Assembly: GCA_964510655.1 (NCBI GenBank)
Contig: CAZEAY010000001.1
Coordinates: 164,944-228,943 of the forward strand
Length of the DNA: 64,000 nucleotides
Reading direction: 5' to 3'
Origin: an uncultured Candidatus Saccharibacteria bacterium
Lineage (GTDB): Bacteria > Patescibacteriota > Minisyncoccia > Phycocordibacterales > XYD1-FULL-46-19
Of this stretch, positions 4,088 to 61,952 are shown one piece after another (position 1 is the first letter of the stretch; the number at the start of each line of letters is the position of its first letter). The position numbers and the translations under genes were made by a program. The notes beneath the pieces were generated by a model. The model saw only the letters and a program-made list of their open reading frames with translations. It had not been told where the DNA came from and did no database searches.

Positions 4088-4183
4088 TAATTCAGGGTTA
4101 AATCTGGACCTATTTAGGTAGAAAAAAATTATTATAGATATACACAGTGGGACTTTGTTTTTTTGGGTGTTATAATTAAATCA

Positions 4184-11556: not shown

Positions 11557-11559
11557 ATG

Positions 11560-12706: not shown

Positions 12707-12740
12707 AATAGCAGCTATTACAGCTGCTATTTTTTACCAG
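12707..12740. terminator. bidirectional hairpin downstream of tRNA-Ala(GGC)
   Basis: aatagcagct-attac-agctgctatt flanked by A and T runs. Confidence 0.6.
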
Positions 12741-12811
12741 TGGACCTACCGGGAGTTGAACCCGGACCTGTTCCATGCCATGGAACCGTTCTACCGCTAT
12801 ACTATAGGCCC
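12741..12811 (-). tRNA. tRNA-Ala (anticodon GGC)
   Basis: reverse complement GGGCCTATAGTATAGCGGTAGAACGGTTCCATGGCATGGAACAGGTCCGGGTTCAACTCCCGGTAGGTCCA; G3:U70; T-stem CCGGG/CCCGG with loop TTCAACT; anticodon loop ATGGCAT. Confidence 0.8.
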
Positions 12812-36029: not shown

Positions 36030-37598
36030 ATGAATACTCAAACATATAATGAGATTGGTAGAGAAGTAGGAACAGAACTAAATAATTTTTTTGAACAATT
36101 TTGTGTTAAATATCCTGAATACCAAACCATAAAGAATGACTATTTAAGAAAAAAGACTCACTTAAACGGTCTTCAGTTTTATGCCGGTTTTATAAGTGGG
36201 AAAAGTAAAAATTGGGAAAATCACATCGAAGTTCCTATTGCTATAGAAATGGTGATGATTTGGGCTTACAAAACTAATCGCATTTTAGATAAAAAGCAAG
36301 ATGTTTGGGCTAAGGAGGAAAATTTGAAAAATACTGCACTAGAACACGATTTGATGCTCGCTTGTATTTATAGTCTTTTAGAATCATATTCTCAAAAAAA
36401 AATCAGTAAAAATGAAAGGATAAAAGATATAATTGGTCATTGTTTATCTCGCCTAGCTTATGGTTTTTGGATCGAACGAAGCATAAGTGTAAAGTATACA
36501 AAACTTGAAGAAATTCTTATTGACTGGGATCTTAAACATGTCGATAGAAATATAAATTTTAACCTCGTGTACGATTATGCTTCTATTGTGGGTTATGCTA
36601 TTTCAAGCGGCGACTTTTCAATAATTGATAAATATGAAAGAGAATTTGACCCACAGGAACGATTTTCCAATGCGGGACAGATAATCAATGATCTTGGTGA
36701 TTTCGGAAACGACATTGATAAACATGTGAAAGTATATCAGGACCTATTTTCTGACATCCGAAATGGAATTATTACTTTTCCCGTACATACACTTATAGGA
36801 GAAAAATTAGTTTTAAGAGCTTTAAAAATGCCCAACCTTACACGGACAAAATTTTGGCAGTGGAGGATGAGGAGGTTGATTGCAAGTAAGAACGTCAGTG
36901 CGGATGTTCTTCGCATTTCCGAAAAAGCTTATTATGCTCATAAAAATTTTTTTGAAAAGCATATCCCAAATTTGAACCCGCTCCTTTTGAGAACTTACGG
37001 TATGCTTATCAACAACAAATATTTTAACCAAAATATTATTAAAGAAGAAGGCAGTGTACTTAGGAGTCGCGTGGTGCTTTGCAGTAATTTGGGAAAGACA
37101 TTGGGAAATTACGATAAACTAGCAGCTCATAAGGAAGGTAAACTGCATAAAGCTTTTTCCATCCTTGTGTTTAATAAAAAGGGAGAACTTTTGATTCAGA
37201 AAAGGGCTGAGGGCAAATATCATTCGGGTGGTTTATGGGCAAACACTTGCTGTAGTCATTATATGGAATCAGAAAGTGTGGAAGTAACAATTCATAGACG
37301 TCTTGAAGAAGAAATGGGATTTGATTGTGATTTGAAGAAAAGATTCAGTTTTGTTTACAATCTCGATGTTGGAAATGGGATGAGAGAACATGAATTTGAT
37401 ACGGTTTTTGAGGGTGAGTACAACGGAGAAATAAACCCCAACCCCGATGAAGTTAGTGATGTGAAATGGATTTCAATCAAAGAACTGAGAAAGGATATTA
37501 CCACGTATCCAGAAAAATATGCAGAATGGTTTAAAAAAATAATTGAGAGAATGAACGGATCAAAGGCCTACTTTACCAAAAACATGAATCAAAATTAA
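36030..37598 (+). CDS. fusion: divergent trans-polyprenyl-synthase-like domain + type-1 isopentenyl-diphosphate isomerase
   Basis: N-terminal about 340 aa with NDLGDFGNDIDK (degenerate second Asp-rich motif) and NGIITFPV (GK.T.P-like), but no clear first DDxxD; C-terminus LHKAFSILVFNKKGELLIQKRAEGKYHSGGLWANTCCSHYMESE...EHEFD = IDI-1 (Nudix fold). Confidence 0.7.
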   Translation: MNTQTYNEIGREVGTELNNFFEQFCVKYPEYQTIKNDYLRKKTHLNGLQFYAGFISGKSKNWENHIEVPIAIEMVMIWAYKTNRILDKKQDVWAKEENLKNTALEHDLMLACIYSLLESYSQKKISKNERIKDIIGHCLSRLAYGFWIERSISVKYTKLEEILIDWDLKHVDRNINFNLVYDYASIVGYAISSGDFSIIDKYEREFDPQERFSNAGQIINDLGDFGNDIDKHVKVYQDLFSDIRNGIITFPVHTLIGEKLVLRALKMPNLTRTKFWQWRMRRLIASKNVSADVLRISEKAYYAHKNFFEKHIPNLNPLLLRTYGMLINNKYFNQNIIKEEGSVLRSRVVLCSNLGKTLGNYDKLAAHKEGKLHKAFSILVFNKKGELLIQKRAEGKYHSGGLWANTCCSHYMESESVEVTIHRRLEEEMGFDCDLKKRFSFVYNLDVGNGMREHEFDTVFEGEYNGEINPNPDEVSDVKWISIKELRKDITTYPEKYAEWFKKIIERMNGSKAYFTKNMNQN

Positions 37599-48188: not shown

Positions 48189-48779
48189 ATGGATCTGTCA
48201 TTTTTATATAAAATAAAAAAATTTTTTACAAAAAAAGAAAAACCCTTTGAAATAAAAGACACGGGTAAATATGGCAACGGCTGTTTTGCAACGAGAGATA
48301 TAAAGAAAGGGGAAACTATTACATTTTTCAACGGAGAAGTTATTACTTTTGAAGAAACAGAAAAAAGAATAGTTACAGGGGATGAAAACAGGACAGACTC
48401 CTTTCAGGTTGATCTAGAGATGGATATGGATTTGAACGAAGAAAGCAGGTCTTTTAATCATAGCTGTAATCCAAATGCTGGTTTTAGAGGTTTTAGTGAG
48501 ATGATTGCCCTTAGAGATATTAACAGGGGGGAAGAAATAACATACGATTATTCAGCTACGGTTGGTCCAAATATCCCAAAAACTTTATGGGAAATGCCTT
48601 GTTTCTGTAAATCAAATAACTGCAGGAAAATTATAGGTAATGTATTAACTATTCCAAAAGACCAACTTGATCAATATGTAGAAGCTGGCACTCTTCAAGA
48701 TTATATAAAAAAAGAGCTCGAAATAATCAAAAAAAATAATGGAATTTTACCCAAATATAAAGAAATTAAACCTCTATAA
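48189..48779 (+). CDS. SET-domain protein (putative protein-lysine methyltransferase)
   Basis: GNGCFATRDIKKGETI, NHSCNPN, EEITYDY, post-SET CFCKSNNC. Confidence 0.75.
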   Translation: MDLSFLYKIKKFFTKKEKPFEIKDTGKYGNGCFATRDIKKGETITFFNGEVITFEETEKRIVTGDENRTDSFQVDLEMDMDLNEESRSFNHSCNPNAGFRGFSEMIALRDINRGEEITYDYSATVGPNIPKTLWEMPCFCKSNNCRKIIGNVLTIPKDQLDQYVEAGTLQDYIKKELEIIKKNNGILPKYKEIKPL

Positions 48780-48795: not shown

Positions 48796-50604
48796 ATGGG
48801 AGAGAATTTAGTTACACATCTTGGTCACTGCATAACAGCCGCTTCAGAATTAGTTGGTGGTAATTTAAGTTTAGTTTATTATTCACACATACCCACAGTA
48901 GCCATAACATTGTTAATGGGTATATTTGTTCTTAGGGCAAGTAAGGGAAGTCTGCAGTCAAAAATATTCTTTTCGTTTTGTGTAGTATTTTCCCTTTGGG
49001 TAGTAGCAAATTTTGTAGCCTGGATTGGGACGAGTAGTGTGTGGATCAGTTTTTTTTGGTCTCTATTGGGATTATCGGATATCATATTTTATGTACTAGG
49101 TCTATATTTCTTCTATGTTTTTGTAGAAAATAAAGACACCACCTTTCGTTTAAAAATTATACTAAGTGCAATTTTAATTCCATTTCTGATCCTTGCGCCA
49201 ACAAAACTTAATCTACCAGGTTTTGACTATACAAACTGCGCGGCAATAGATACTTCATTTTTAGGATATCTATTCTACGCCAAAATGTTTATTGCTGGAT
49301 GGTTAATAGTTTTATCAATATATAAATATAAAAAATCTCAAAAGTCTGAGCGTCCAAAAATAATTCTACTGTCTATCGGGTTGGCTCTTTTCTTCTTATC
49401 ATTCTTCGTCACTGGTTATATTGCCGACACCTATCTCCGTTATGATATCGAACTTTACGGTCTATACGCCATGACGGCTTTTATGGGTATCTTGGCGTAT
49501 TTAATAGTCAAATATAAGGCTTTTGATATTAAGTTACTTGGAGCTCAAGCTCTGGTTTACTCTTTAATTATCTTACTTGGAGCGCAATTCCTCTTTATCA
49601 AAAGTCAGATAAACATGGTCCTAACCGGAATAGCTCTTTTCTTAACAATAATTTTTGGTTACTACCTCATTCTCGGAATCAAAAAAGAAATTGCGCAGAA
49701 AGAAGAAATTCAAAGATTGGCAACTAGTTTAGCAAGATCAAATGACCAATTAGTTGTCGCCAATGAAAAATTGAAAGAATTAGATAAGCAAAAAACCGAA
49801 TTCGTATCTTTGGCCTCGCACCAGTTGCGTAGCCCACTGACTGCGATCAAGGGTTATTCATCCATGATTTTGGAGGGTTCATTTGGAAAAATAAATGAGA
49901 AAGCCAAGGAGGCGGTTGGGCGAGTATTTGAATCCAGTCAAAAATTGGTTTTAGTCATTGAAGACTTCTTAAACATTACGCGCATTGAACTCGGCCGAAT
50001 GAAATATGATGTTTCGGAATTTAGTTTCAACAAATTGGTCACCAGTGTCATTGGCGAACAAAAACCAAACGTCGAGCGACGGGGTCTAGCCATTAGCTAT
50101 GAAGAGGATGCACCAGAATACAAAGTTTTTGCTGACTTCGGTAAAATCAGTCAGGTTATCTCAAATATTGTCGACAATGCCGTAAAATATTCTAAAGAGG
50201 GAAGTATCGCTGTTAAGGTGGTTGGGATTACCGACGGAAAAGATAAGAAGGTTCGTCTATCCGTCAAAGATACTGGGGTCGGAATTGAGCCACAAGTTTT
50301 ACCTCATTTATTCCAAAAATTCGTCCGCGCCTACGATGCTGGCAAAACCAATATTATTGGTACTGGGCTCGGCTTATTCGTAGCTAAGCAAATTGTCGAC
50401 TCTCATCCTGGAGGCAAGATCTGGGCCGAATCTGAGGGCAAAAACAAGGGTTCTACTTTCTTTGTCGAACTCTCTCTCTCGACAGGCGTAGCCCCAGTCC
50501 TAACTCCACCACCCGCCGACCCTGCTGTGGCTGAACCAGCCTCATCTTCTGCAACCACCACCGAACCCCCAATCCCACAACCCACCGCCGGCGATTTATC
50601 GTAA
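48796..50604 (+). CDS. sensor histidine kinase with about 7-TM N-terminal sensor domain and Pro/Thr-rich tail
   Basis: multiple TM helices; H-box SLASHQLRSPLTAIKGY; NIVDNAVKYS; DTGVGIEPQVLPHLFQKFVRA; GTGLGLFVAKQIVDSHPGGKIWAES. Confidence 0.85.
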   Translation: MGENLVTHLGHCITAASELVGGNLSLVYYSHIPTVAITLLMGIFVLRASKGSLQSKIFFSFCVVFSLWVVANFVAWIGTSSVWISFFWSLLGLSDIIFYVLGLYFFYVFVENKDTTFRLKIILSAILIPFLILAPTKLNLPGFDYTNCAAIDTSFLGYLFYAKMFIAGWLIVLSIYKYKKSQKSERPKIILLSIGLALFFLSFFVTGYIADTYLRYDIELYGLYAMTAFMGILAYLIVKYKAFDIKLLGAQALVYSLIILLGAQFLFIKSQINMVLTGIALFLTIIFGYYLILGIKKEIAQKEEIQRLATSLARSNDQLVVANEKLKELDKQKTEFVSLASHQLRSPLTAIKGYSSMILEGSFGKINEKAKEAVGRVFESSQKLVLVIEDFLNITRIELGRMKYDVSEFSFNKLVTSVIGEQKPNVERRGLAISYEEDAPEYKVFADFGKISQVISNIVDNAVKYSKEGSIAVKVVGITDGKDKKVRLSVKDTGVGIEPQVLPHLFQKFVRAYDAGKTNIIGTGLGLFVAKQIVDSHPGGKIWAESEGKNKGSTFFVELSLSTGVAPVLTPPPADPAVAEPASSSATTTEPPIPQPTAGDLS

Positions 50605-50646: not shown

Positions 50647-50675
50647 TTGACAGAAAACAGAATCTTCAATAGAGT
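50647..50675 (+). promoter_or_regulatory. sigma70 promoter TTGACA-17-TAGAGT for the 50683-57901 operon
   Basis: TTGACAgaaaacagaatcttcaaTAGAGT; ATG at 50683 lies only about 7 nt after the -10, so the mRNA may be leaderless. Confidence 0.45.
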
Positions 50676-50682
50676 TAAATTA

Positions 50683-51624
50683 ATGCTATTGGATGCCTAT
50701 AAAAAAATGTTCTTTATACGAACAGTGGAAGAACAAATAGCCGCTTATTACCTTAAGAATAAAATAGCAAGCCTCATTCATTTCTGTATTGGTCAGGAAG
50801 CGATAGCTGTGGGCGTCTGTAATGCACTACAGAAAGATGACCGTGTTATAGGAAATCATCGATCACACGGACATTACCTAGCCAAAGGAGGAAATCTTAA
50901 AAAGATGGTCTGTGAATTGTTGGGAAGGGGATACGGTTCGTCGAATGGTAAGGGTGGATCTATGCACCTAATTGACACATCGGTTAATTTTATTGGATCG
51001 ACGCCAATTCTTTCGAGCGCGGTGCCTCTCTCTTGCGGTAGTGCCTTTGAACAAAAATACCACAAAAGTGATGCGGTAACGGTCGTATTCTTGGGTGACG
51101 GCGCCTTTGAGGAGGGGGGTGTCTATGAATCTCTAAATCTTGCGGCTCTTTTTAATCTACCAATACTTTTTGTTGTTGAAAATAATCTCAGATCAATTAA
51201 TACACGCCTTTCGGAACGGCGATCCTCGGACCATAATATTGAAAATATCGTTACTGGCTTTGGAGTACGATACATAAAAGCTGATGGAAATGATTATTTA
51301 GACGTGACAATAAAAACTGGAAATCTTATAACTGGGGTACGAGCGGGCAAACCTGCTCTTATTGAATGTATGACATACCGTCACTTAGCACATAGTGGGC
51401 CAGATTTTGAAGAGGAAACTCGTGAAGAAGATACCGTAGAACGGCGGAAGGAAAAAGATTCGGTAGCAAAGATGAGACGAGAAAATCTAGCTTCAGGAAT
51501 TTCAGAAGAGGAAATTATTGCTGCGGAAAATGATATTAAAAGAGCTGTTGCCGATGCTATTCTGTACGCTGAACAGGCACCATTCCCAAAAAAAGAAAGT
51601 TTATATACGGATCTTTATGTCTAA
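50683..51624 (+). CDS. thiamine-diphosphate-dependent 2-oxoacid/acetoin dehydrogenase E1 alpha-like subunit
   Basis: GQEAIAVG, GDGAFEEGGVYESLNLAALFNLPILFVVENN (TPP motif GDG...N), YRHLAHSGPD; track start 50647 is a TTG inside the -35 box. Confidence 0.75.
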   Translation: MLLDAYKKMFFIRTVEEQIAAYYLKNKIASLIHFCIGQEAIAVGVCNALQKDDRVIGNHRSHGHYLAKGGNLKKMVCELLGRGYGSSNGKGGSMHLIDTSVNFIGSTPILSSAVPLSCGSAFEQKYHKSDAVTVVFLGDGAFEEGGVYESLNLAALFNLPILFVVENNLRSINTRLSERRSSDHNIENIVTGFGVRYIKADGNDYLDVTIKTGNLITGVRAGKPALIECMTYRHLAHSGPDFEEETREEDTVERRKEKDSVAKMRRENLASGISEEEIIAAENDIKRAVADAILYAEQAPFPKKESLYTDLYV

Positions 51625-52654
51625 TAGAATTATCAAATACACCGAAGCAATTAAGGAAGCCACTGACCAAATAATGGAGATAGATAAGGATGTTGTTGTC
51701 CTTGGTCTAGAAGTCTCATATAAAAACGGTGCGGACGGAACAACCGCTGGCCTTAAGGAAAAATATCCCAACCGAATAATTGAAACACCTCAATCAGAAA
51801 ATGCTGTAACAGGAATGGCTGTTGGGGCAGCTATAACGGGTCTTCATCCTATTGTGCATCACGGCAGAGTTGAGTTTGCGATCTTTGCGGCCGATCAGAT
51901 ATTTACACAGGCGGCGAAGTGGAATTATATGTTCGGCGGCGGTCAACCGGTTCCTGTTGTATTTAGGATCAATATTGGTCGACAATGGGGTCAGGGCCCA
52001 CAACACACTCAAGCACTCTATCCGCTTTTTGGTAATGCACTTGGCCTTAAGGTTGTGATCCCCTCTACTCCGCGTATGGCGAAGGGTTTACTTATCTCTG
52101 CAGTTCGAGACAAAAATCCCGTTGTTATTTTGGAACCGCGATGGCTTTTCTCTTTAAAACAAGATGTCCCAATTGAACCCTATGATAAACCTCTAGATAA
52201 AGGGGTCGTGGTTAAAGAGGGGGCAGATCTTACGATTGTTTCTTACGGAGATGGTCTGATTGCAGCTTATGAAGCTTTAGATCTGATTAACAACCATATT
52301 GACGTAGAACTTATAGATCTTGTCTCTATAAATCCTATAGATTATGTAACTGTCTTAAAATCAGTTAAAAAAACTGGCCGGCTTATCACAATTGATACCA
52401 CCAATCACGCTTTTAGTGTTGGCTCGGAGGTTATAGCAAATATTTCAGAGCAGCAGCTATCGTTAAAGAAAGCTCCAGTTGCACTTTCCTGTCCCGATGT
52501 TCCGGTACCTACTTCAACAATACTCACTGAATCTTACTATCCAACAAAAATAGATATAGCAAATGCTGCGTTACTCCTTATGGGTAAGCCAACCATAAAT
52601 CGCGAATTAACTTTTGAAGAACTACACCTTGGCCCTAATTTTGTTATTAAATAG
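51617..52654 (+). CDS. E1 beta-like (transketolase-type pyrimidine-binding + C-terminal) subunit
   Basis: MSNR... overlaps the alpha stop by 8 nt; ETPQSENAVTGMAVGAAITGLHPIV; C-terminal transketolase-like domain. Confidence 0.8.
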   Translation: MSNRIIKYTEAIKEATDQIMEIDKDVVVLGLEVSYKNGADGTTAGLKEKYPNRIIETPQSENAVTGMAVGAAITGLHPIVHHGRVEFAIFAADQIFTQAAKWNYMFGGGQPVPVVFRINIGRQWGQGPQHTQALYPLFGNALGLKVVIPSTPRMAKGLLISAVRDKNPVVILEPRWLFSLKQDVPIEPYDKPLDKGVVVKEGADLTIVSYGDGLIAAYEALDLINNHIDVELIDLVSINPIDYVTVLKSVKKTGRLITIDTTNHAFSVGSEVIANISEQQLSLKKAPVALSCPDVPVPTSTILTESYYPTKIDIANAALLLMGKPTINRELTFEELHLGPNFVIK

Positions 52655-52656
52655 TT

Positions 52657-54228
52657 ATGATATTTTATAATAGCAAACAAAAGATTATAAGAAATAAAAA
52701 TCTTCCCAAATCCGTACGATCTGTAGTACGTATGTATCCACCTAACCAGGTCAATAGATTATTTTATGGCGGACTCCCTCATCTAGGCAACACTCTTTTG
52801 AACTCTTGGAAATCGACCGCGATACAAGAAGCAGCGAAGACATATGAGGACTACAGTCTTTCTTCAAACCTTCTTATAAAAGGTTTTAAAGATCCTACTG
52901 CGGACAAGGTAAGACTAGGAATTGGAAGTCCTGCGCGTTTCAAACCTTTTGACAAGTGTATTACTGGAATAGAACATGCCTTGGGAAATAGGATCCTTTC
53001 TGACTACCAATTAGCTGCAGGATATAGTGAGGACAAAGGACCAATCATAAAATATTTTAAAGTTACTCATGATTTAGAAATCACAGAGAATAATATTATT
53101 TTCACTCATTCAAGCACTCAGGCGCTTTCTCTTGTTATGGAGGCAATACTTGACTATGGGGATGCGGTCATTATGACAGCTCCCAATTATGGACTTTTTG
53201 CCTTTATACCGGAGAGAATTGGGGGCGAAGTTAGGCTTTTACCGCTTACCAGCCTTAATAATTGGAAGATTAACCCGAAAGAACTTAAACAGCTCATTGT
53301 TAATACAAATGATGAACTTAAGCGGGATTATGACATGAATCGTGGGAAATATATTTTCAGGCGTTCTGGTATACCGCCAAGAGTTTCGGCTTTTCTTAAT
53401 TTAAATCCGCACAACCCGACGGGTGTTGTGTATAGTGCAAAGGATAGATTGTTGTTGACAGAAATTTCCAATGTTTGCAATCGGGCTGGCGTATTTATTA
53501 TTGATGATTTGGCTTATTTTGGCCTAGAGTTCGACAGAAATTCCACTGCCTTGCCCGTTTGTAGCTTGGAGGATAATTTTAATAATACAATAACAATGTA
53601 TTCTCTTTCTAAATCTTATGGGTTAGCTGGCTTAAGATCAGGTATAATCATAGCTAACGAGGTGATTATCTCCCTGATAAGAGATAAAATATTTCAAAGT
53701 TTGGATTCATTGTCTTTATTGCAATCGGCCGCTATGAGCGCAATTTTCTTAACGGAAAATAATGCTATTTTTGAAAGAGAGAAGTATTTTACCGATATTA
53801 CCAGAAAATATTATGAAAGATATATCTTTACAAAAGCCGTTATTATGGGAGTTGATAAAATTAATAATGAAGAAAAAATACTACTAGACAAAATCATTAA
53901 GAATAACAAGCTGAATTTTAATATAAAAAAATCTATGAGCGGCATCAAAGATGTTAGTATCGCTCTTGAACCGCAGTCTGGTTTTTTTATAATTTTGGAT
54001 TTAAGCAAAATACTCGGAAAATCATATAAAGGATTCAAGATAGTTGATGATGTAACTTTGTTAAAATTTTTGTATACATCAAGCAATATTAAATTATTGA
54101 CCGGCAGAGCATTTTGTTGGCCTAACCAAAGCCAGCTTACTGCCAGGGTAACTATCGCGTTTGATAAATATGAAGATTTATTGAAATCTTTTTTACGCCT
54201 CAAATCATCTATAGAGCTATTAGTATGA
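52657..54228 (+). CDS. PLP-dependent class I/II aminotransferase (long, 523 aa)
   Basis: NPHNPTGVVYS, YSLSKSYGLAGLRSGII (PLP-Lys block); about 100-aa N-terminal extension. Confidence 0.75.
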   Translation: MIFYNSKQKIIRNKNLPKSVRSVVRMYPPNQVNRLFYGGLPHLGNTLLNSWKSTAIQEAAKTYEDYSLSSNLLIKGFKDPTADKVRLGIGSPARFKPFDKCITGIEHALGNRILSDYQLAAGYSEDKGPIIKYFKVTHDLEITENNIIFTHSSTQALSLVMEAILDYGDAVIMTAPNYGLFAFIPERIGGEVRLLPLTSLNNWKINPKELKQLIVNTNDELKRDYDMNRGKYIFRRSGIPPRVSAFLNLNPHNPTGVVYSAKDRLLLTEISNVCNRAGVFIIDDLAYFGLEFDRNSTALPVCSLEDNFNNTITMYSLSKSYGLAGLRSGIIIANEVIISLIRDKIFQSLDSLSLLQSAAMSAIFLTENNAIFEREKYFTDITRKYYERYIFTKAVIMGVDKINNEEKILLDKIIKNNKLNFNIKKSMSGIKDVSIALEPQSGFFIILDLSKILGKSYKGFKIVDDVTLLKFLYTSSNIKLLTGRAFCWPNQSQLTARVTIAFDKYEDLLKSFLRLKSSIELLV

Positions 54229-55100
54229 AAATATATATTGCATCATCAGAAGAGCATGTGGGAAAAATTAAAGAAGATATTTATATTCGCGACGCTTATA
54301 GAGATAAGGGATTTTTTTGTGAAATCTTTACACTGGAAGACATCATAAGGATATCAAAACCATCTGATGTGGTAATTTTAAAAAGCATCTGGGGGTATCA
54401 TTTACATTACCGAGAATTTCTAAAGAAAATATCAATACTCAAAGAAAAGAAGATTAAATTAATAAACGGCTATGAATTTATTTTTTGGAATATTGATAAG
54501 TATAAATACTTATCCGAATTAAAACATCTAAACGTGGTCCCAACAGTGCTTCTTAATTTCAAAAGTGCCGAGACTGCATCTGAGATTAGAAATAAAATAT
54601 CGCAGGCAAATAAAAAGTTGAATACAGATACCTTAGTTATTAAACCTTGTATTTCAGAAAGCGGTTATTTAACTTTTAAATACGATAAAACTAAAAACAA
54701 TAAGGCTACTATTGCAATGCTGAAAAAGAATAAACATTTTAACTTTGTCGCGCAGCCTTACCGGCCGGATGTCTTGACGGGAGAGCTGTCTGTAATCATA
54801 ATTAACGGCATACCCTTGTATGGCATCAAGAGATTCTCAGGAATTTTCACTGAAAAGAAAGACTTGGAGTATATTGATCAACAAAAAATTCCTAAACAAA
54901 TTACGGATCAAGTGAGACTATTACTTAATTTTTTTGTTAATAAATTTAAGTCTTTGCCAAAAATTTGTAGAGTGGATTTTGTAAAACATGACTTAAAGTA
55001 TGAACTTTTGGAAATTGAGTTGATTGACCCTGATTTATTTTTTAGATTTCTTCCAGAGAGGGTATTACATAAATGTCTGGCAGGACTTATTGGTATTTAG
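54225..55100 (+). CDS. ATP-grasp-fold ligase (RimK/glutathione-synthetase-like)
   Basis: LVIKPCISESGYLTF, RVDFVKHDLKYELLEIELIDPD; ATGA overlap with the aminotransferase stop. Confidence 0.5.
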   Translation: MKIYIASSEEHVGKIKEDIYIRDAYRDKGFFCEIFTLEDIIRISKPSDVVILKSIWGYHLHYREFLKKISILKEKKIKLINGYEFIFWNIDKYKYLSELKHLNVVPTVLLNFKSAETASEIRNKISQANKKLNTDTLVIKPCISESGYLTFKYDKTKNNKATIAMLKKNKHFNFVAQPYRPDVLTGELSVIIINGIPLYGIKRFSGIFTEKKDLEYIDQQKIPKQITDQVRLLLNFFVNKFKSLPKICRVDFVKHDLKYELLEIELIDPDLFFRFLPERVLHKCLAGLIGI

Positions 55101-55167
55101 AAAAGATAAATTTTATGCATAATCATAAATTTATTGAAATCAAAAATTATAAGCCCGCAATTAATAA

Positions 55168-55698
55168 ATGATAAATCTTATGAAAAAAAAAGTATCAGAA
55201 ATAAAAAATGAATCAGATACTTCTTCGGACGTGAAAAAACAAATTTTTAGAAAAGGAGTTTCTGCTCTGATCTTAAATAAGAATCAGGAAGTTCTCTTGG
55301 TTAATCTCAGATCATTCGAGACTAAATTTTATGCTGTTCCGGGGGGAGGGATAGAAGCGGGTGAAACGTTAGACGATGCGGCTTACAGGGAAATCAAGGA
55401 GGAATTAGGTATTTCTAAAAAACTTCTTGAGTCAGTTGGTATGTCTACTAGTCCAATTAAGCTCTTATTTAAAACAGGGAAACTTAAAAGGGATGGGGTT
55501 GAATATGATGGCATGGAGAGATTCTTTTTTGGGTTTCACTTTTTAGGAAAAGATGACTACATAACCCTGCAATCCGATGAAATAAGAGGTTATAAATGGG
55601 TTACATTTAGTAACCTCAAAGATCATCTTCTTTTCGAAAATCAACTAGAGGATACTACTGAAAAATTACTAGAATTATTCCCCCATTTGAAGAGATGA
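55168..55698 (+). CDS. Nudix hydrolase
   Basis: Nudix box GGIEAGETLDDAAYREIKEELGI. Confidence 0.8.
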   Translation: MINLMKKKVSEIKNESDTSSDVKKQIFRKGVSALILNKNQEVLLVNLRSFETKFYAVPGGGIEAGETLDDAAYREIKEELGISKKLLESVGMSTSPIKLLFKTGKLKRDGVEYDGMERFFFGFHFLGKDDYITLQSDEIRGYKWVTFSNLKDHLLFENQLEDTTEKLLELFPHLKR

Positions 55699-55710
55699 AG
55701 ATATTATTTT

Positions 55711-56955
55711 ATGGATTATAAAGCTCCCCTTAATAAACCAACCCTTCTTTTTGTTGAGGAGTATGAGAGTACCCTATCTAGAAGTGTCATCTCGAACCAG
55801 ACAATCACATTAGTTTTATTGCGATTTAAGCAAAATATGTTATTTAGTCAGGAACACTTGGATAGGAGCTCTCATGTTCCCTGCTTTGTTTTCGACAAAA
55901 CGAAGCCGATAGAAAGTGAAACAAAGAAATTTAAAAAATTCTGTCGAGAAAGTGGGATTGTGGTTAATTATTTCTATAATGACTCTGAATATAACCAGGA
56001 GGTGATTCAGAAATTTGCCTCGCTGCTTGAATTTCCGGGTGCGCTGAATGAATATCAGGCCCGCTGTGTAAGAGATAAGGCCGTAATGAAAGATAAATTG
56101 CAAGAACTTGGATATCGGACAATGTCTTATCAAGAGCTGGGTTCTGTTGATGATGCGTTGGACTTTGCTGAAAAAAATGGCGGTTTTCCTTTTATTGTTA
56201 AGTGGCGCAGAGGACTTTCATCTAAAGAAGTATACCGGATTGAAAGCAGGGGGCAATTAGAAGCCCTTCAGCTTGATTATTCTACCGGGCGATTCATTGC
56301 AGAAACATATTGCCCATACTTGATCTGGAGTTTTGATTCACTAGTACAAGATGGGAAAGTTGTGGGAACTTTTCTTACTTGGCTTCCATACACCAATCTT
56401 AGCTTCGCAGAAAAGAAGGAGAAGTTCGCTCAAATCACAGTTGCAGAACAGCCGAAGAGTATTAGATTTGATGGAAGAAAAATAACTCAGGATATTATTA
56501 ATGGGATTGGCTTGGAAAATGGATACATAGAAGTCGAAGTGTTTGTTGATCCTTACGGGTCCCCTACAGTGTGCGAAATTGCGTGGCGAACCCCCGGAGA
56601 GCACATGTTGTCAAATCAAAGCCTAGCCTTTGGAGTAGATGTCTGCTCTTTATTAGTCGATATTATGGTTGGCAAAAAAATCCAACCGCTTCCTCTAAAT
56701 GGTCGACAGTGCGTCGGTGATATGTTTTTACCACTGACCAGTGGTACTGTCACTCAAATTTCTTCCTATGAGGATATAAGCGGTCTCGATGGAGTAATCA
56801 ATGGCGACGTTGTGTATAAACAAGGAGATGTTATCGAGTCAAAAAGACAATATACGAGTTGTGCCGGCTGGGTCCAAATCATCGGACAAAGTGCGGATGA
56901 GGTCTTAAATAGGATGTTAAGGGTATATGAGAAGTTTAAAATTGAAACGACCTAA
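55711..56955 (+). CDS. ATP-grasp-domain enzyme (carboxylate-amine ligase-like) with unknown N-terminal domain
   Basis: RDKAVMKDKLQELGYRTMSYQELGSVDDALDFAEKNGGFPFIVKWRRGLSSKEVYRIES. Confidence 0.55.
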   Translation: MDYKAPLNKPTLLFVEEYESTLSRSVISNQTITLVLLRFKQNMLFSQEHLDRSSHVPCFVFDKTKPIESETKKFKKFCRESGIVVNYFYNDSEYNQEVIQKFASLLEFPGALNEYQARCVRDKAVMKDKLQELGYRTMSYQELGSVDDALDFAEKNGGFPFIVKWRRGLSSKEVYRIESRGQLEALQLDYSTGRFIAETYCPYLIWSFDSLVQDGKVVGTFLTWLPYTNLSFAEKKEKFAQITVAEQPKSIRFDGRKITQDIINGIGLENGYIEVEVFVDPYGSPTVCEIAWRTPGEHMLSNQSLAFGVDVCSLLVDIMVGKKIQPLPLNGRQCVGDMFLPLTSGTVTQISSYEDISGLDGVINGDVVYKQGDVIESKRQYTSCAGWVQIIGQSADEVLNRMLRVYEKFKIETT

Positions 56956-57010
56956 GCAACTTAGTTCCATCTGAGACCAGCACTATGAAAAAAGTACAAT
57001 AAAACCAAGT

Positions 57011-57901
57011 ATGAAAAAATTCAATAAAATAGCTATTATTGATACAGTTAAAATTGCTGAGGAGGCAAAGGAGCAAATACAGCTTTACTCAAGTGAACCG
57101 GTTATTTATCCTGACCACGACACAAAAGATGAGAAGGAAATTTCTCAGAGAATTAATGACGCAGATGCTGCGTTGGGAAATTGGCATTCAAAAATAAATG
57201 CTTCAATCTTAAAACATACTCCAAATCTTAAATATATTGGAATTTGTGGAACAAGTTTAGCGAATATTGATCTTGAGGCGATAAGAAAACATAACATAGT
57301 TATCAAAAACGTCACAGATTATGGCGATCAAAGTACGGCTGAATATATTTTTGCGCAACTACTCAATCTCTTTAGGGGGTTCGGTAAACACATGTGGAGA
57401 ACCGAACCTAGTGAGCTTTACACAAAAACAATTGGAATCGTCGGTCTAGGAGCAACAGGGCAGCAAGTTGCCGGGATGGCTTTGGGATTTAAAATGAAAG
57501 TTTTATATTACAGTAAAACCAGAAAGGCGGAGTGGGAGAAGAAAGGAGTTCAATATTTTCCCATTGATGATTTACTAAGGAAGAGCGATATCATATCTAT
57601 GCACGTTCCTAAAAATACTAAGATTATTGGAAAAGATGAATTGGAAAAAATCGGTAATGGCAAAATTATAACCGATACTTGCTTAGGAAACATTTATAAA
57701 GATATTGATGCAGTCCGACTGTGGCTTGGAAATGAAAATAATTTTTTAATAAGAGATCATCATCCTGAAATAAAAGAAAAACTCGGTGATTTGAGTAGAT
57801 TTATATACACAGATGCAATAGCCGGAATAACAGCAGATACCCGAGAAAGGCTAGGTGCGAAGGTTATAGATAATATCAAAGCCTATCTAAAAGACAATTA
57901 A
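57011..57901 (+). CDS. D-isomer-specific 2-hydroxyacid dehydrogenase family (NAD-binding)
   Basis: TIGIVGLGATGQQVAGMALGFKMKVLYYSK (GxGxxG Rossmann), DIISMHVPKN. Confidence 0.75.
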   Translation: MKKFNKIAIIDTVKIAEEAKEQIQLYSSEPVIYPDHDTKDEKEISQRINDADAALGNWHSKINASILKHTPNLKYIGICGTSLANIDLEAIRKHNIVIKNVTDYGDQSTAEYIFAQLLNLFRGFGKHMWRTEPSELYTKTIGIVGLGATGQQVAGMALGFKMKVLYYSKTRKAEWEKKGVQYFPIDDLLRKSDIISMHVPKNTKIIGKDELEKIGNGKIITDTCLGNIYKDIDAVRLWLGNENNFLIRDHHPEIKEKLGDLSRFIYTDAIAGITADTRERLGAKVIDNIKAYLKDN

Positions 57902-57929: not shown

Positions 57930-57967
57930 AGAACTAAAAATACCCAAGCAAGAATCTGCTTGGGTAT
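57930..57967 (-). terminator. intrinsic terminator for the NDK-like gene
   Basis: acccaagcag-attc-ttgcttgggt then T-run on the minus strand. Confidence 0.6.
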
Positions 57968-58401
57968 CATAGCATGCGGAAGACCCCAACGTCTTTTTCC
58001 GCTTCCATCATGTTCCTAGATCGATGAATGATATTTTGATAATATCTGACACCATCGATCATAAGGGGTTTTCTCCCGCCGAATTTAAAGCGTATACTTT
58101 CGGGGGAGCAATCGACAGGATCAAGTTCTGTGCCTGTGATTCGAAGAAGCGTACTAATAGCGTTTTTCCCAACTACAAGCCCTGCTTCAACGAGTCCATC
58201 CACAAGAGGTTTGAAAATTGCATCTCTGTACCTCTCAGGCAGGTCAGAATAAATGATTTCCAATGCCCAACGTGGCATCTCAAGACTCTTGCTACCTGAG
58301 ATAGTTAGGCCACCAGCCTCGATCATTGCTCTGACTTCTTCACGAAATACCAAACCATGGGGCTTGATAATGTAAAAACTAGTTTCCAGAGTACTGTCCA
58401 T
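57967..58401 (-). CDS. nucleoside-diphosphate-kinase-like protein (divergent, GC-rich)
   Basis: YIIKPHGL (like IIKPDG), PLVDGLVEAGLVVG, NIIHRSRN (NDK active-site N..H.S pattern); AGGAG SD; consensus promoter upstream. Confidence 0.55.
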   Translation of the reverse strand: MDSTLETSFYIIKPHGLVFREEVRAMIEAGGLTISGSKSLEMPRWALEIIYSDLPERYRDAIFKPLVDGLVEAGLVVGKNAISTLLRITGTELDPVDCSPESIRFKFGGRKPLMIDGVRYYQNIIHRSRNMMEAEKDVGVFRML

Positions 58402-58538: not shown

Positions 58539-59183
58539 TCACACTAACTTAAAGTAATCCAAGCTTGTTTTTATGAAACTTTCAGTGTCAGACTGTTTTA
58601 GCCAGATATTTTTGATTTCCTGTAATTTACCTTTTAGGTCGGGATAGAAAAGTAATTCTTCTGCTCCAATCGCTTTTTGGATTGACGGTAAATTTAGAAA
58701 AATCACATTAAATATCTCCGACAACTCCCAAAGCTTGTCGTCATTTCTAATTCCTAATTTCTCACAAAAATCATAAAAGGCAAAGTGGGTTAATTCATGG
58801 GCAATAACCTCTTTTCGCATATCATATGAACGCTTGTAATAGACCTGGAAGCTCTTAGTTTCTAGATAGCGTGGGTTGCAGTTAAAAATAGACAAGTAAC
58901 AAGTATAGTTTTCTTTACTATAATCTTTGCCAAAATATTTTTTAAGTTCAAAAAATAGCGGCTCTTTTATTTCATTGAAACAATTTCCAGTATCTTCTAA
59001 AACTTTCTCTAATTCATCCTTTTTTGCAATATAAAAATCATCTATGTACTCTACATGATTTTCTTTCTTAATATTTGGATGATCATCACGTATTTTTTTA
59101 CCAAAATCTGCACCACCAATAACAGCATCACAAAAAGCCAAATATACTTCTTTATCTAATTTTTTATTTAATTCTATTTCCAT
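58539..59183 (-). CDS. hypothetical HExxH-motif protein (putative Zn-metallohydrolase)
   Basis: VIAHELTHFAF; similar size and motif context to the 62586 gene. Confidence 0.4.
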   Translation of the reverse strand: MEIELNKKLDKEVYLAFCDAVIGGADFGKKIRDDHPNIKKENHVEYIDDFYIAKKDELEKVLEDTGNCFNEIKEPLFFELKKYFGKDYSKENYTCYLSIFNCNPRYLETKSFQVYYKRSYDMRKEVIAHELTHFAFYDFCEKLGIRNDDKLWELSEIFNVIFLNLPSIQKAIGAEELLFYPDLKGKLQEIKNIWLKQSDTESFIKTSLDYFKLV

Positions 59184-59185: not shown

Positions 59186-59779
59186 TTAAAAGATAACATC
59201 AAAAAGTTCAGTATTAGAAACTTCTGACCCATAAGTAACTGCCTTCATCCTATTTTCTATCGCGAAATGACAATTTAAACCGCTGTCGTCTATAACCAAA
59301 ATATCTTCTGGAGCAATAGCGGGGTTTAATTTTTGTGTTTCTTGGATGGCAAATTGCCAAAAGGCGTCGTCTGGCTTGGCCACCCCGGCTTCGGACGAGT
59401 TTATCACCAAGTCTGGCAAATCGGCTATTTGATATTTTTCCATTAACACACCGAGGGCACTGGAGTTATTTGTCGTATAAACAATCAATTTGCCAGCCTG
59501 TTTCGCCTTTAATAAAAGATCATACAGAGCATTGTTTCTACTCTCTGAATCAAATAATTCAGAACAGTATTTATTCCAAATTTCCCCAGATACACCTTTT
59601 TCTTTTAAGAAATCATCAATTTCTTTATCTGTTCTATCTTTAGTCTGTAAGTATTTAAAAATTTCACCCACAAGCTCTTTCTTGAGTCCAAATTCTTTTT
59701 CATATTTTTCTTTTATCGCTGATGTATTATTTACAACAAGCACACCACCAATATCAACAAATAAAACTTTAATGGACAT
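59186..59779 (-). CDS. HAD-superfamily hydrolase
   Basis: motif I VLFVDIGGVL (DxG), motif IV ILVIDDSGLN. Confidence 0.65.
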   Translation of the reverse strand: MSIKVLFVDIGGVLVVNNTSAIKEKYEKEFGLKKELVGEIFKYLQTKDRTDKEIDDFLKEKGVSGEIWNKYCSELFDSESRNNALYDLLLKAKQAGKLIVYTTNNSSALGVLMEKYQIADLPDLVINSSEAGVAKPDDAFWQFAIQETQKLNPAIAPEDILVIDDSGLNCHFAIENRMKAVTYGSEVSNTELFDVIF

Positions 59780-59905: not shown

Positions 59906-60319
59906 ATGGAAAAAAGAGTCAGGGCTGTAATTATTCAGAATGGTTCTGTTCTACTGATTCATCGGGTCAAACCAGACCGAGAATACTGGGTTTTCCCCGG
60001 AGGCGGCCTTAAGAAAACCGATGCTACACCTCAGGATGGCCTGAAACGTGAGTGTCTAGAGGAGCTCGGAGTTACTATTGAGGTCGGAGATCTCTTTAAG
60101 GAAGAGATATATGATTTTTCTCTCGAAAAACAGATTGAGCTCTTCTATCTCTGCAGGATTACTGGTGGGAAAATTGGAACTGGCACTGGTCCAGAGTTTA
60201 CCCGTGATCCGGGGCAATCTGGTACCTACGAACCTCAATGGATCTTAATCAGCGATCTCAACAGCAAGAATGTCCAGCCGACCACAATAAGAAATATGGT
60301 GGTAAGTGTAAGTTCATAA
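59906..60319 (+). CDS. Nudix hydrolase
   Basis: WVFPGGGLKKTDATPQDGLKRECLEELGV (Nudix-box variant with RECLEELGV). Confidence 0.7.
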   Translation: MEKRVRAVIIQNGSVLLIHRVKPDREYWVFPGGGLKKTDATPQDGLKRECLEELGVTIEVGDLFKEEIYDFSLEKQIELFYLCRITGGKIGTGTGPEFTRDPGQSGTYEPQWILISDLNSKNVQPTTIRNMVVSVSS

Positions 60320-60330
60320 AAATAATTAAC

Positions 60331-61311
60331 ATGAAAAAAATATATCCAAAAAAATTACAGGCGGGTGATGAGATAAGAATAGTTGCTCCCTCACATTCTA
60401 TATCAATTATTTCAGAGGCAAACCGTGAAATCGCTAATAAACGTCTTTCTGATTTAGGCTTTAAAGTAACGTTTGGTAAAAACGTAGAAGAAAGTGATGA
60501 ATTTCATTCTTCATCCATTAAATCTCGGGTCGCAGACTTACACAAAGCCTTTTTGGATAAAAAGGTAAAAGGAATCTTTACTGTCATTGGCGGATTTAAC
60601 TGTAATCAGCTTTTAAAATATATTGATTGGAAAATAATCAAAAACAATCCTAAAGTATTTATTGGATATTCAGACACAACTGCGTTACAAAATGCCATTT
60701 TTGCCAAAACTGGTTTAATTACATATTCTGGACCCGCCTGGTCTACCTTTGGTCAAAAACTACATTTCGATTACACACTAGACTATTTCAAGAAATGCTT
60801 AATGTCTGACGAGGTCGTTGAAATTAAGCCGGCTAAAGAATGGAGCGACGACGCTTGGTATAAAGATCAAGATAATCGAGTATTGATAAAAAATGACGGC
60901 TGGCTCATCATAAATAAAGGGCAAGCTTCGGGAACAATCCTGGGAGCTAATCTTTGTACCTTAAACCTACTCCAAGGAACAGAGTATTTCCCAAATTTAA
61001 AAGATTCAGTTTTGTTCATAGAAGATGATGAAGAATCGAAGTCTGGAAATTTTGACCGAGACTTACAATCTCTCATTCACCAGCCATCATTCAAAGGGGT
61101 AAAAGGAATTGTAATCGGACGATTCCAAAATGCGAGTAAAATGACGAACGATAAGTTGATAAAAATAATAAAAACCAAAGCCGAATTAAAAAATATTCCC
61201 GTAATTACCAATGTGGATTTTGGTCACACCAGCCCAATCATCACTTTCCCAATTGGTGGAGAGGTAAAGATCGATACTAAAAAGAAGAGTATTGTAATTA
61301 CCAAACACTAA
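60331..61311 (+). CDS. LD-carboxypeptidase / MccF-like peptidase S66
   Basis: GDEIRIVAPS, nucleophile block FIGYSDTTAL, C-terminal GHTSP; ATG at 60331 (track start 60238 overlaps the Nudix gene). Confidence 0.8.
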   Translation: MKKIYPKKLQAGDEIRIVAPSHSISIISEANREIANKRLSDLGFKVTFGKNVEESDEFHSSSIKSRVADLHKAFLDKKVKGIFTVIGGFNCNQLLKYIDWKIIKNNPKVFIGYSDTTALQNAIFAKTGLITYSGPAWSTFGQKLHFDYTLDYFKKCLMSDEVVEIKPAKEWSDDAWYKDQDNRVLIKNDGWLIINKGQASGTILGANLCTLNLLQGTEYFPNLKDSVLFIEDDEESKSGNFDRDLQSLIHQPSFKGVKGIVIGRFQNASKMTNDKLIKIIKTKAELKNIPVITNVDFGHTSPIITFPIGGEVKIDTKKKSIVITKH

Positions 61312-61313: not shown

Positions 61314-61952
61314 ATGGATAGGAATCTGATATATTTAGCCGGTGGAGGAGGGGAACAGCAAACCTTTTTATTTGATGATGTTTATCTAAAAAGCCTACCT
61401 AAAAACGGCAAAATTTTATATTTACCAATTGCTCTTCGTGGTCATAAATTATATGAAGATGCTCCGAAGTGGCTCAGGGACTTAATAAATTCACACAACC
61501 GACAAGATATAGAGATTGAAACATGGACAGAAATAGAAAATAAAAACTTTTCTGATTTACAAGATTTTGACAGTATCTTCATTGGTGGTGGAAACACTTG
61601 GAGTTTACTCAAAGAAATCAGAGAATCTGACTTTGATAAACTACTTATAGAATTTCTGGCGACAAGAGGATCAATTTATGGAGGCAGTGCTGGAGCAATT
61701 ATTTTGGGTAAAAAAATTACTAGCCCAGATGAAAATGAAGTTGAATGGAAAGATGACAACGGCCTTGACCTGCTGGGAGATTATTCGGTCTTCTGCCATT
61801 ACAAAACTGATCAAGAAAATGAGTGTCAAAAATGGTCTGAGGACAATAAACTACCAGTAATCTGCCTATCGGAAGAAACAGGAAGTGTGTTTGATGAAGG
61901 AAGGTTTGAAATTATTGGAGATGGGCAAGGAATGATAATTAAAACAACATAA
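61314..61952 (+). CDS. peptidase S51 family (dipeptidase E / cyanophycinase-like)
   Basis: IYLAGGGG, FIGGGNTWSLL, GGSAGAIILG (S51 Ser block). Confidence 0.75.
   Translation: MDRNLIYLAGGGGEQQTFLFDDVYLKSLPKNGKILYLPIALRGHKLYEDAPKWLRDLINSHNRQDIEIETWTEIENKNFSDLQDFDSIFIGGGNTWSLLKEIRESDFDKLLIEFLATRGSIYGGSAGAIILGKKITSPDENEVEWKDDNGLDLLGDYSVFCHYKTDQENECQKWSEDNKLPVICLSEETGSVFDEGRFEIIGDGQGMIIKTT

Follow-up and report, generated by a model that had tools for sequence, protein, structure and literature searches.

A composite operon of an aminotransferase, two ATP-grasp ligases, a Nudix hydrolase and an E1-type enzyme pair in a Patescibacteriota genome

Gene content and family assignments

A stretch of 64,000 nucleotides from an uncultured Candidatus Saccharibacteria bacterium (assembly GCA_964510655.1, contig CAZEAY010000001.1, positions 164,944 to 228,943 of the forward strand; hereafter the window) contains seven consecutive open reading frames (ORFs) on the plus strand at 50683-57901. 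They encode the alpha and beta subunits of a thiamine pyrophosphate (TPP)-binding E1 enzyme (E1a and E1b, together E1ab), a long pyridoxal phosphate (PLP)-dependent aminotransferase (AT), a first ATP-grasp ligase (AG1), a Nudix hydrolase, a second ATP-grasp ligase (AG2) and an NAD(P)-binding protein of the 2-hydroxyacid dehydrogenase (2-HADH) fold (HADH-like protein; Table 1). The operon is composite, consisting of a conserved AT-AG1-Nudix-AG2 core and a clade-specific E1ab/HADH-like add-on that is gained and lost together.

Table 1. Positions of the operon genes, their signals and adjacent features in the window
Feature	Position	Strand	Size and basis
Promoter	50647-50675	+	-35 TTGACA 50647-50652; 17-nt spacer; -10 TAGAGT 50670-50675; 7 nt, then ATG 50683
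E1 alpha (E1a), TPP-binding	50683-51624	+	313 aa; Pfam E1_dh 1.6e-61
E1 beta (E1b)	51617-52654	+	345 aa; Transket_pyr + Transketolase_C
Class I/II PLP aminotransferase (AT)	52657-54228	+	523 aa, long; Aminotran_1_2 2.1e-29
ATP-grasp 1 (AG1), DcsG (D-cycloserine synthetase) clade	54225-55100	+	291 aa; profile A2
Nudix hydrolase	55168-55698	+	176 aa; alternative start 55180; NUDIX 5.9e-19
ATP-grasp 2 (AG2), L-amino-acid-ligase clade	55711-56955	+	414 aa; LAL_C2
2-HADH-fold NAD(P)-binding protein (HADH-like)	57011-57901	+	296 aa; Pfam 2-Hacid_dh, 2-Hacid_dh_C (3.4e-22)
HADH-like, replaced-triad motif DTCLG	57674-57688	+	alignment
HADH-like, replaced-triad motif RDHHPE	57752-57769	+	alignment
HADH-like, replaced-triad motif YTDAIAG	57806-57826	+	alignment
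Hairpin terminator	57939-57968	.	13-bp stem (found by the scan on the minus strand); between the HADH-like gene and convergent ndk
ndk	57967-58401	-	convergent with the operon
S66 peptidase	60238-61311		
S51 peptidase	61314-61952		

The first four genes are tightly joined: the E1b ATG (51617) sits 8 nt inside E1a, whose stop codon is at 51622-51624, the E1b stop (52654) and the AT ATG (52657) are 2 nt apart, and the AT and AG1 genes overlap in an ATGA at 54225-54228. Elsewhere, the intergenic gaps measure 67 nt (AG1-Nudix), 12 nt (Nudix-AG2) and 55 nt (AG2-HADH). An earlier reading of this DNA, made from its letters alone (the sequence-only reading), had described seven overlapping or abutting genes forming one tightly coupled unit, and its ORFs, junctions and domain calls were all confirmed. 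The Pfam and NCBIfam matches are those of Table 1, together with a weak GSH-S_ATP/DcsG match. GC content at third codon positions is uniform across the operon (0.29-0.38), giving no sign of recent foreign origin and ruling out a horizontal-transfer island by composition. A LysW/amino-group-carrier pathway was also ruled out, the 67-, 12- and 55-nt gaps being too short for a carrier gene.

Promoter-like matches are no commoner in the region than expected by chance (27 vs 25.2 in shuffles), and the TTGACA/TAGAGT match alone therefore means little. However, the layout TTGAC(A/T)-16/17-TAnAAT-7 nt-ATG is kept 5' of E1a in six distinct related loci (named among them L002, L003, L004, L027/L078 and L041/L073), the sequence farther upstream being unrelated among these loci, and it persists where E1ab has been relocated to the 3' end of the cluster. 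This conservation suggests that the E1 module has its own promoter, and that the E1a mRNA is probably leaderless with its true start at ATG 50683. The consensus promoter with its -10 box against the first ATG, from which the sequence-only reading had proposed a leaderless message, is thereby supported, and the listed gene start at 50647 is corrected, since the TTG chosen there by the ORF finder is the -35 hexamer. No conserved promoter pattern was found upstream of AT in loci that lack E1.

E1a possesses an intact GDG-X26-NN TPP motif (aa 138-168, nt 51094-51186) and has human pyruvate dehydrogenase (PDH) E1a as its best solved-structure match (1.8e-42); E1b matches solved structures at ~1e-55 and its homologues are 345-346 aa long. 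With E1_dh, the TPP motif, Transket_pyr and Transketolase_C all present, the pair belongs to the heterotetrameric alpha/beta 2-oxoacid dehydrogenase E1 family, and both subunits fall under the cut-offs of the PDH E1 equivalogs (E1a 289 bits against 394 for TIGR03182 of NCBIfam; E1b 250 bits against 321 for NF006667). No E2 or E3 domain, and hence no E1+E2+E3 complex, was found among window ORFs of at least 300 aa or within ~8 kb of E1ab in four other Paceibacteria (loci L033, L035, L036/37 and L042), and over this range the earlier claim of an E1 pair without E2/E3 partners is borne out.

E1b has thousands of homologues, at least 120 of which are 66% or more identical and mostly from Paceibacteria. 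In the four contexts inspected, relatives at 68-73% identity lie in modules of a zinc-dependent alcohol dehydrogenase (ZnADH), E1a, E1b and either PfkB or a short-chain dehydrogenase/reductase (SDR), inside surface-glycan or heptose clusters that also hold glycosyltransferases, methyltransferases, epimerases, flippase/ABC exporters and GmhA/HldE-like genes. These modules (L033, L035, L036/L037 and L042) suggest a TPP-dependent sugar-modifying role for genes that are commonly annotated as E1 of pyruvate or acetoin dehydrogenase. Stand-alone E1ab is thus common in Paceibacteria, and finding it here is no surprise for the group, although the sequence-only reading had called the pathway as a whole unexpected in a metabolically minimal genome. 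A literature search on E1 in Parcubacteria returned nothing useful.

The PLP site of AT is intact, with NPHNPTG at aa 250, DDLAY at aa 283 and SLSKSYGLAGLR at aa 316 (SLSK, aa 316-319), so that the NPxG, D..Y and Schiff-base Lys SxSK motifs of class I/II PLP aminotransferases are all present. No NCBIfam equivalog matched AT at its cut-off, the best being GntC with 107 of 415 bits. The AG1 family profile (A2) aligns with the whole of the DcsG structure 6jil at 5.8e-22, GshB (glutathione synthetase) coming next at 0.0056, and AG1 relatives carry the Pfam domain DcsG_N (PF27100). Orthology to DcsG is not indicated, given 60 bits for the window protein and 116 for a Firmicutes relative against a cut-off of 360 (NF058666), and dcsA-E are absent from the context, so this is not the cycloserine pathway. 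AG2 matches LAL_C2 with 31.2 bits against a 29.4-bit cut-off, and its profile (A1) matches RizA (4wd3, 4.7e-21), BacD (7e-13) and BL00235 (1e-11) far ahead of Ddl (2e-4, or ~1e-4), so that domain and profile both point to the L-amino acid ligase (LAL) clade. The window has a separate gene for an ordinary Ddl at 4163-5149. The clade check proposed with the sequence-only reading therefore separates the two ligases into DcsG and LAL clades, neither being a housekeeping Ddl or RimK. The Nudix hydrolase has an intact Nudix box, GGIEAGETLDDAAYREIKEELGI (aa 60-82, nt 55345-55413), the residues of which are nearly invariant among Paceibacteria orthologues (alignment A3), and its nearest solved structures are generic (RppH/Ap4A/NudI types).

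The HADH-like protein retains a GxGxxG Rossmann motif (GLGATG, aa 145). Alignment with the Pyrococcus glyoxylate reductases 5aov and 2dbq, however, shows that the catalytic Arg-Glu-His triad of D-isomer-specific 2-hydroxyacid dehydrogenases is missing (Arg241 to Leu225, Glu270 to His and His288 to Ala), and the Leu/His/Ala substitutions are conserved in 8/8 orthologues. The loss of the carboxylate-binding Arg and the catalytic Glu and His makes a hydroxyacid-to-oxoacid step doubtful. Judged by these residues, it is a 2-HADH-fold NAD(P) protein and not a demonstrable 2-hydroxyacid dehydrogenase; the D-2-hydroxyacid dehydrogenase of the sequence-only reading is thus not supported, and the oxo-/hydroxy-acid interconversion that was to feed the aminotransferase becomes unlikely. 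A VanH/VanA-like D-Ala-D-Lac logic was ruled out, as the HADH-like protein lacks the triad and the ligases are not Ddl-type.

Distribution of the core and its accessory genes

A profile-guided scan of one genome per species yielded 31 loci with AG2 relatives and a scan of metagenomes yielded 80 further loci, synteny being judged by tblastn. The order AT-AG1-Nudix-AG2 is present in ~38 Paceibacteria/Parcubacteria loci that are long enough to judge (~18 from genomes and ~20 from metagenomes), across which AG2 identity to the window protein ranges from 88% down to 49%, and in most Paceibacteria loci ndk is convergent with AG2 or the HADH-like gene. E1a/E1b and the HADH-like gene are limited to the closest relatives (AG2 ~75% or more identical). 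They are co-present in 8/8 loci with both ends visible (the window, L002-L004, L027, L041, L073 and L078), and the remaining loci lack both, AG2 there running directly into ndk. The order is rearranged to AG2-HADH-E1a-E1b in L027 and L078, and the Nudix gene is relocated upstream in L041 and L073. The constant co-occurrence of E1ab and the HADH-like gene suggests that the two ends of the operon form a single accessory module around the four-gene core. The gene-order comparison proposed earlier thus reveals an adjacency that is strongly conserved and survives rearrangement, but the idea that all seven genes form one pathway is not upheld, because the core occurs without E1ab and the HADH-like gene.

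A close relative, L063 (8362-12135), has kept Nudix, AG2 and the HADH-like gene behind a truncated AG1 reduced to its C-terminal half, and unrelated genes stand in place of E1ab, AT and the AG1 N-terminus. In L008 (6097-7661), AT is split into two overlapping ORFs of 169 and 363 aa, owing either to a frameshift/pseudogene or to faulty assembly. AG2 belongs to a rare family, comprising 155 clusters at 90% identity among 5.8 billion. Viral contigs contained no AG2 relative, and phage carriage was ruled out on this basis.

Around the Paceibacteria core the neighbouring genes vary. They include a Nudix fusion (L022/L029) with an N-terminal 2-oxoglutarate (2OG)-oxygenase-like domain, recognised by eye from HxD...H...RxS and without a Pfam match, a methyltransferase-Nudix fusion, PhyH, GH20, kinases of four unrelated families (APH, SCO1664-like, AAA_28 and CPT-like) and a recurrent uncharacterised protein of ~220 aa. 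Across the clusters, the Nudix domain is fused to four pathway partners, namely AT, AG2 (protein P0068), a methyltransferase and the oxygenase-like domain. The Nudix hydrolase, to which the sequence-only reading had given a possible part in processing a nucleotide-linked intermediate, stands as a conserved partner within the core and not as a side detail. Immediately 5' of E1a in L003, and on the same strand (1244-4977), lie genes for a Nudix protein, an uncharacterised protein, a chloramphenicol-phosphotransferase-like kinase, an S66 peptidase and a GrpB nucleotidyltransferase-fold protein, a set that by analogy resembles drug-modifying or self-resistance functions.

Firmicutes have two cluster types in which AT and the two ligases again accompany Nudix genes. 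The first of these, the second type overall, is found in metagenome-assembled genomes (MAGs) of Peptostreptococcaceae/Lachnospiraceae and comprises an NTP-transferase, a Nudix::AT fusion, a PIG-L deacetylase, AT, a DcsG-like ligase and a LAL, followed by a B12-radical-SAM enzyme, further radical-SAM enzymes, GT2 and an M24 peptidase. One copy adjoins a Mob_Pre relaxase gene, suggesting mobility. The third type is known from human-gut metagenomes, where 24 long loci were counted. AT, the DcsG-like ligase, the LAL and a polar amino-acid ABC transporter are kept in 24/24, an upstream Nudix in 22/24, a Cof-type HAD phosphatase in 23/24 and LysR in 20/24, and an additional downstream Nudix occurs in at least 19. 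AAA_28, a dNK-like kinase, a MobA-like transferase and a sugar-O-methyltransferase-like gene are variable, and a nucleoside phosphorylase, GNAT and S51 occur in a few loci. This gut operon (L085-L124; for example L114, 3280-18067) runs from LysR through Nudix, AT, the DcsG-like gene, sometimes AAA_28, and LAL to the transporter, and then through an optional methyltransferase, MobA-like or kinase gene to Nudix and the Cof-type HAD phosphatase, with S51, GNAT and nucleoside phosphorylase upstream in some copies. It appears to be a large, well conserved and uncharacterised operon.

Candidate function and competing explanations

A fixed core, lineage-specific tailoring, probable mobility, dispensability and rarity together constitute the signature of a specialised small-molecule pathway, which is different from that of central metabolism or housekeeping ligases. 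The genes and their families, synteny, co-occurrence, promoter conservation and triad substitution form the observed part of the case, and on balance the locus is regarded, with modest confidence, as a specialised small-molecule, amide-forming pathway made up of the four-gene core and an accessory layer. In such a pathway, AT would form an amine or amino acid from a carbonyl precursor, and AG1 and AG2 would each activate a carboxylate as an acyl phosphate, the pair forming two amide bonds with amino acids, or one amide and one DcsG-like ring closure. The Nudix hydrolase, followed in some relatives by the HAD phosphatase, would act on an intermediate or precursor derived from a nucleotide and strip off its pyrophosphate or nucleotide handle. 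The product would probably be an aminoacyl- or peptidyl-type derivative.

The amine may, as a tentative proposal, be carried on a nucleoside- or sugar-type scaffold. This is favoured because the Nudix domain is retained and fused to four different partner enzymes, because kinases, phosphatases, an NTP-transferase and a nucleoside phosphorylase recur in related clusters, and because the nearest E1ab relatives lie in glycan clusters. For a peptidyl-nucleoside pathway in particular, the Nudix fusions and the kinase, NTP-transferase, HAD phosphatase and nucleoside phosphorylase genes would be circumstantial hints. A parallel in logic is pseudouridimycin biosynthesis, which employs the PumI oxidase, the PumG transaminase, the amide ligases PumK (ATP-grasp) and PumM, the PumH kinase and the PumD phosphatase (PMC7955054, PMC10127198). 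The likeness is one of logic only, in that a transaminase-installed amine is acylated twice by ATP-dependent amide ligases and kinase and phosphatase steps act on a nucleoside, whereas the window lacks a pseudouridine synthase and a GMC oxidase.

The accessory module would add a second activity. E1ab would decarboxylate a 2-oxo acid, probably pyruvate, and transfer or condense the resulting C2 'active aldehyde', forming or cleaving an acyloin without feeding an E2. The HADH-like protein would act as its redox partner on the resulting carbonyl or alcohol, as the Zn-ADH or SDR may do beside E1ab in other Paceibacteria. This partnership is suggested because E1ab and the HADH-like gene are gained and lost together and because a reductase (Zn-ADH or SDR) always lies beside E1ab elsewhere in Paceibacteria. 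An acyloin ketone as the AT substrate would be compatible with the tight E1a-E1b-AT coupling (8-nt overlap, 2-nt gap). Some sources name E1b relatives 'acetoin:DCPIP oxidoreductase beta', and the ZnADH-E1a-E1b arrangement of other Paceibacteria resembles a dehydrogenase (butanediol dehydrogenase) plus AcoAB. The acetoin dehydrogenase AcoA/AcoB differs in that AcoC/AcoL (E2/E3) are absent here and, in the window, translational coupling ties the pair to an aminotransferase and two ligases. E1ab-like pairs add a pyruvate-derived two-carbon branch to nucleoside diphosphate (NDP)-sugars in paulomycin (Plm8/Plm9), avilamycin and kosinostatin biosynthesis, where, as here, an E1a/E1b pair without E2/E3 lies inside a biosynthetic cluster (PMC4802897). 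The Paceibacteria E1ab family further resembles Plm8/Plm9 in occurring in sugar/glycan clusters beside a reductase. The window operon, however, lacks NDP-sugar genes and has an atypical 2-HADH-fold protein as the reductase partner, and the comparison is one of role, not sequence.

In its most specific and more doubtful form, this proposal would have Paceibacteria and gut Firmicutes share a hitherto unrecognised cluster family that makes aminoacyl-/peptidyl-nucleoside- or amino-sugar-type antimetabolites by means of the DcsG-type and LAL-type ligases, the class I/II transaminase and the Nudix enzyme, the scaffold being decorated here with a pyruvate-derived C2 unit by a leaderless-transcribed E1ab and a re-tooled HADH-fold reductase.

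Several points weigh against a specialised amide-forming pathway of this kind. Substrates, step order and product are all predicted from sequence, and the stand-alone status of E1ab is judged from window ORFs of at least 300 aa and four neighbourhoods. AT is of class I/II, the type that usually handles alpha-amino/alpha-keto acids, and characterised DcsG and LAL enzymes act on free amino acids. An oxidase able to generate a carbonyl on a nucleoside or sugar is not among the conserved genes of the core, and the window operon holds neither an exporter nor an obvious resistance gene. The HADH-like protein could be catalytically dead, and L063, having lost the 5' half of its cluster, suggests that the pathway is dispensable. 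The Paceibacteria Nudix family has 419 members against 155 for AG2, and one member with 62% identity (L043) lies outside any cluster. Identity to the window domain falls to 18-22% in the Nudix domains of Firmicutes, one of which has a degenerate box, so that Nudix may have been recruited independently. Finally, the transaminases PumG/SapH are fold-type I subclass II and not class I/II enzymes (PMC10127198).

The most serious rival, an unlikely but weighty one, is in essence the sequence-only reading: the product would be a bacilysin-like di- or tripeptide, derived from amino acids alone, that acts as a 'Trojan-horse' antimetabolite. An unusual 2-oxo acid would be made with the help of E1ab and the HADH-like protein, AT would convert it into a non-proteinogenic amino acid, AG1 would cyclise or extend it and AG2 would add an L-amino acid; nearby peptidases would process or detoxify the product and Nudix would be peripheral. 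The bacilysin ligase BacD and the rhizocticin ligase RizA belong to the same LAL clade as AG2, and bacilysin genes include a class I/II aminotransferase and redox enzymes beside the ligase, as in the window operon. AG1 is nearest to DcsG, whose substrate is a free amino acid, AT belongs to class I/II, and the polar amino-acid ABC transporter of all 24 gut-type loci and the recurrent peptidases (S66 and S51 nearby, M24 inside Firmicutes clusters, S51 in some gut loci) would also fit a peptide product. However, AG2 has very low identity to the solved LALs (best single-sequence E 2.6e-7), and the BacD/RizA pathways lack the second, DcsG-type ATP-grasp and the conserved Nudix of the window cassette, which for its part is without an exporter. 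A peripheral Nudix is difficult to reconcile with its retention within the core in ~38 Paceibacteria loci and its fusion to four pathway enzymes. Genes that handle nucleotides or sugars are a recurrent feature of all three cluster types, the carboxylate-binding Arg and catalytic His are missing from the HADH-like protein, and the nearest E1ab relatives lie in glycan clusters, not in amino-acid pathways.

Modification of the cell envelope is an improbable explanation, although a published system lends it some weight. In the Campylobacter jejuni HS:2 capsule, an amine made by the PLP transaminase Cj1437 is coupled to a carboxylate by the ATP-grasp enzyme Cj1438, followed by the phosphatase Cj1435, so that capsular glucuronate is amidated (PMC11800379). 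By analogy, the window ligases would amidate a surface-glycan uronic acid in the manner of Cj1435-Cj1438, or add amino acids to a nucleotide-linked peptidoglycan precursor in the manner of an Asl-type D-Asp ligase, and E1ab would decorate a sugar. The glycan and heptose clusters around E1ab relatives and the envelope-related genes of some loci (S66 LD-carboxypeptidase, GH20, PIG-L and GT2) are consistent with this. However, the Paceibacteria core is flanked by ndk, a histidine kinase and the like, not by glycosyltransferases, flippases or mur genes, and the window cluster has no glycosyltransferase. Its ligases belong to the DcsG and LAL clades, whose enzymes act on small molecules, whereas Cj1438 has a TupA-like fold. 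The rarity of the AG2 family and the copy beside a relaxase gene also argue against an envelope function.

Salvage or catabolism of an amino acid or nucleoside taken up from outside, under LysR control in gut bacteria, is more improbable still: LysR, the ABC importer, the HAD phosphatase and the few nucleoside phosphorylases of the gut-type loci would suit it, but two ATP-consuming ligases are not expected of catabolism, the Paceibacteria loci have neither transporter nor regulator, and the variable tailoring enzymes (oxygenase-like domain, methyltransferases and radical SAM) suggest product diversification. An ordinary pyruvate/2-oxoacid dehydrogenase E1, with E2/E3 encoded elsewhere and lying by chance beside housekeeping ATP-grasp paralogues, is essentially excluded. 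In its favour, E1a and E1b are genuine members of the E1 family and the TPP motif is intact, and the inspection for E2/E3 on the ~395-kb source contig covered only window ORFs of at least 300 aa. Against it, the adjacency is conserved and kept through rearrangement, E1ab is gained and lost jointly with the HADH-like gene, E2/E3 were found around E1ab neither in the window nor in the four other contexts, both subunits score under the NCBIfam PDH cut-offs, and Ddl is encoded separately. A phosphonate pathway, considered because of literature combining ATP-grasp, Nudix and AT, was also ruled out, as Pfam scans of the operon, its immediate flanks and window ORFs of at least 300 aa revealed no PEP mutase.

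Every enzyme family in the operon is already known. The uncharacterised part is the conserved four-family combination, its three architectures across Patescibacteria and Firmicutes, and its decoration by E1ab and a triad-less 2-HADH-fold protein; a literature search found no paper describing the DcsG-type, LAL-type, class I/II AT and Nudix combination. Patescibacteria are generally seen as metabolically minimal organisms with little specialised metabolism. If the locus does encode a specialised small-molecule pathway, a dispensable, variably decorated core in common with human-gut Firmicutes would be a testable candidate for a new small-molecule family, and if the product is an antimetabolite it could be a chemical weapon or signal for ultra-small episymbionts. 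The DcsG and LAL ligase pair, the recurrent Nudix partner and the rewired 2-HADH-fold active site each pose a problem in enzymology. Because stand-alone E1ab is widespread in Paceibacteria glycan clusters and has been recruited here, E1 annotations may need revision: in candidate-phyla genomes, many genes annotated as 'pyruvate dehydrogenase E1' may encode tailoring enzymes that form C-C bonds and not enzymes of central metabolism, which would affect metabolic reconstructions.

Neighbouring genes and other features of the window

The S66 and S51 peptidase genes that the sequence-only reading had noted downstream of the operon are both present at their sites (Table 1), but their link to the cluster is weak. 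Among the longer loci, only ~four have S66 close to the cluster, and S51 turns up beside no more than a few clusters of the gut type; with an association this sporadic, and with GrpB, not S51, beside the S66 gene of L003, the two were ruled out as conserved partners. A Nudix ORF at 59906-60319 shares 82 nt with the S66 ORF at the annotated start of the latter. As the Pfam domain of S66 sets in only at residue 46, the true S66 start is probably farther downstream. Between the operon and these Nudix, S66 and S51 genes are two minus-strand genes, 58539-59183 and 59186-59779, which encode a family-less 214-aa protein with an HExxH motif (IAHELTHF) and, beside it, a HAD-family hydrolase. The motif indicates that the 214-aa protein may be a metallopeptidase.

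On the other side, the operon is preceded by a membrane histidine kinase gene (48796-50604, plus strand), directly 5' of which is a gene for a bacterial SET-domain protein (48189-48779, plus strand). No response regulator was seen beside the kinase in the window. The SET and kinase pair is also found near the L003 cluster, and a kinase adjoins AT in L008 and L009. A pair of tRNA-Ala genes (anticodons TGC and GGC) lies ~1.1 kb apart on the minus strand at 11559-11630 and 12740-12811, and no other RNA families were detected in the window.

Further Nudix domains occur away from the operon. A leucyl-tRNA synthetase of 956 aa (16371-19241, plus strand) possesses a NUDIX domain at aa 394-525 (3.6e-16), right after its CP1 editing domain (aa 220-380). 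The Nudix box, GGVEKGENVVEAARREVLEETG, looks intact, and the architecture is unusual for an aminoacyl-tRNA synthetase. A 522-aa protein (36030-37598, plus strand) combines an uncharacterised N-terminal part of ~370 aa with a C-terminal Nudix-fold domain containing LWANTCCSH, which is typical of type-1 isopentenyl-diphosphate isomerase, and may therefore be an isoprenoid-enzyme fusion. With the operon Nudix hydrolase and the ORF at 59906-60319, there are at least four Nudix-fold domains in the 64 kb. These are mutually distant (37% identity or less over short stretches), and the lineage appears to make heavy use of Nudix modules.

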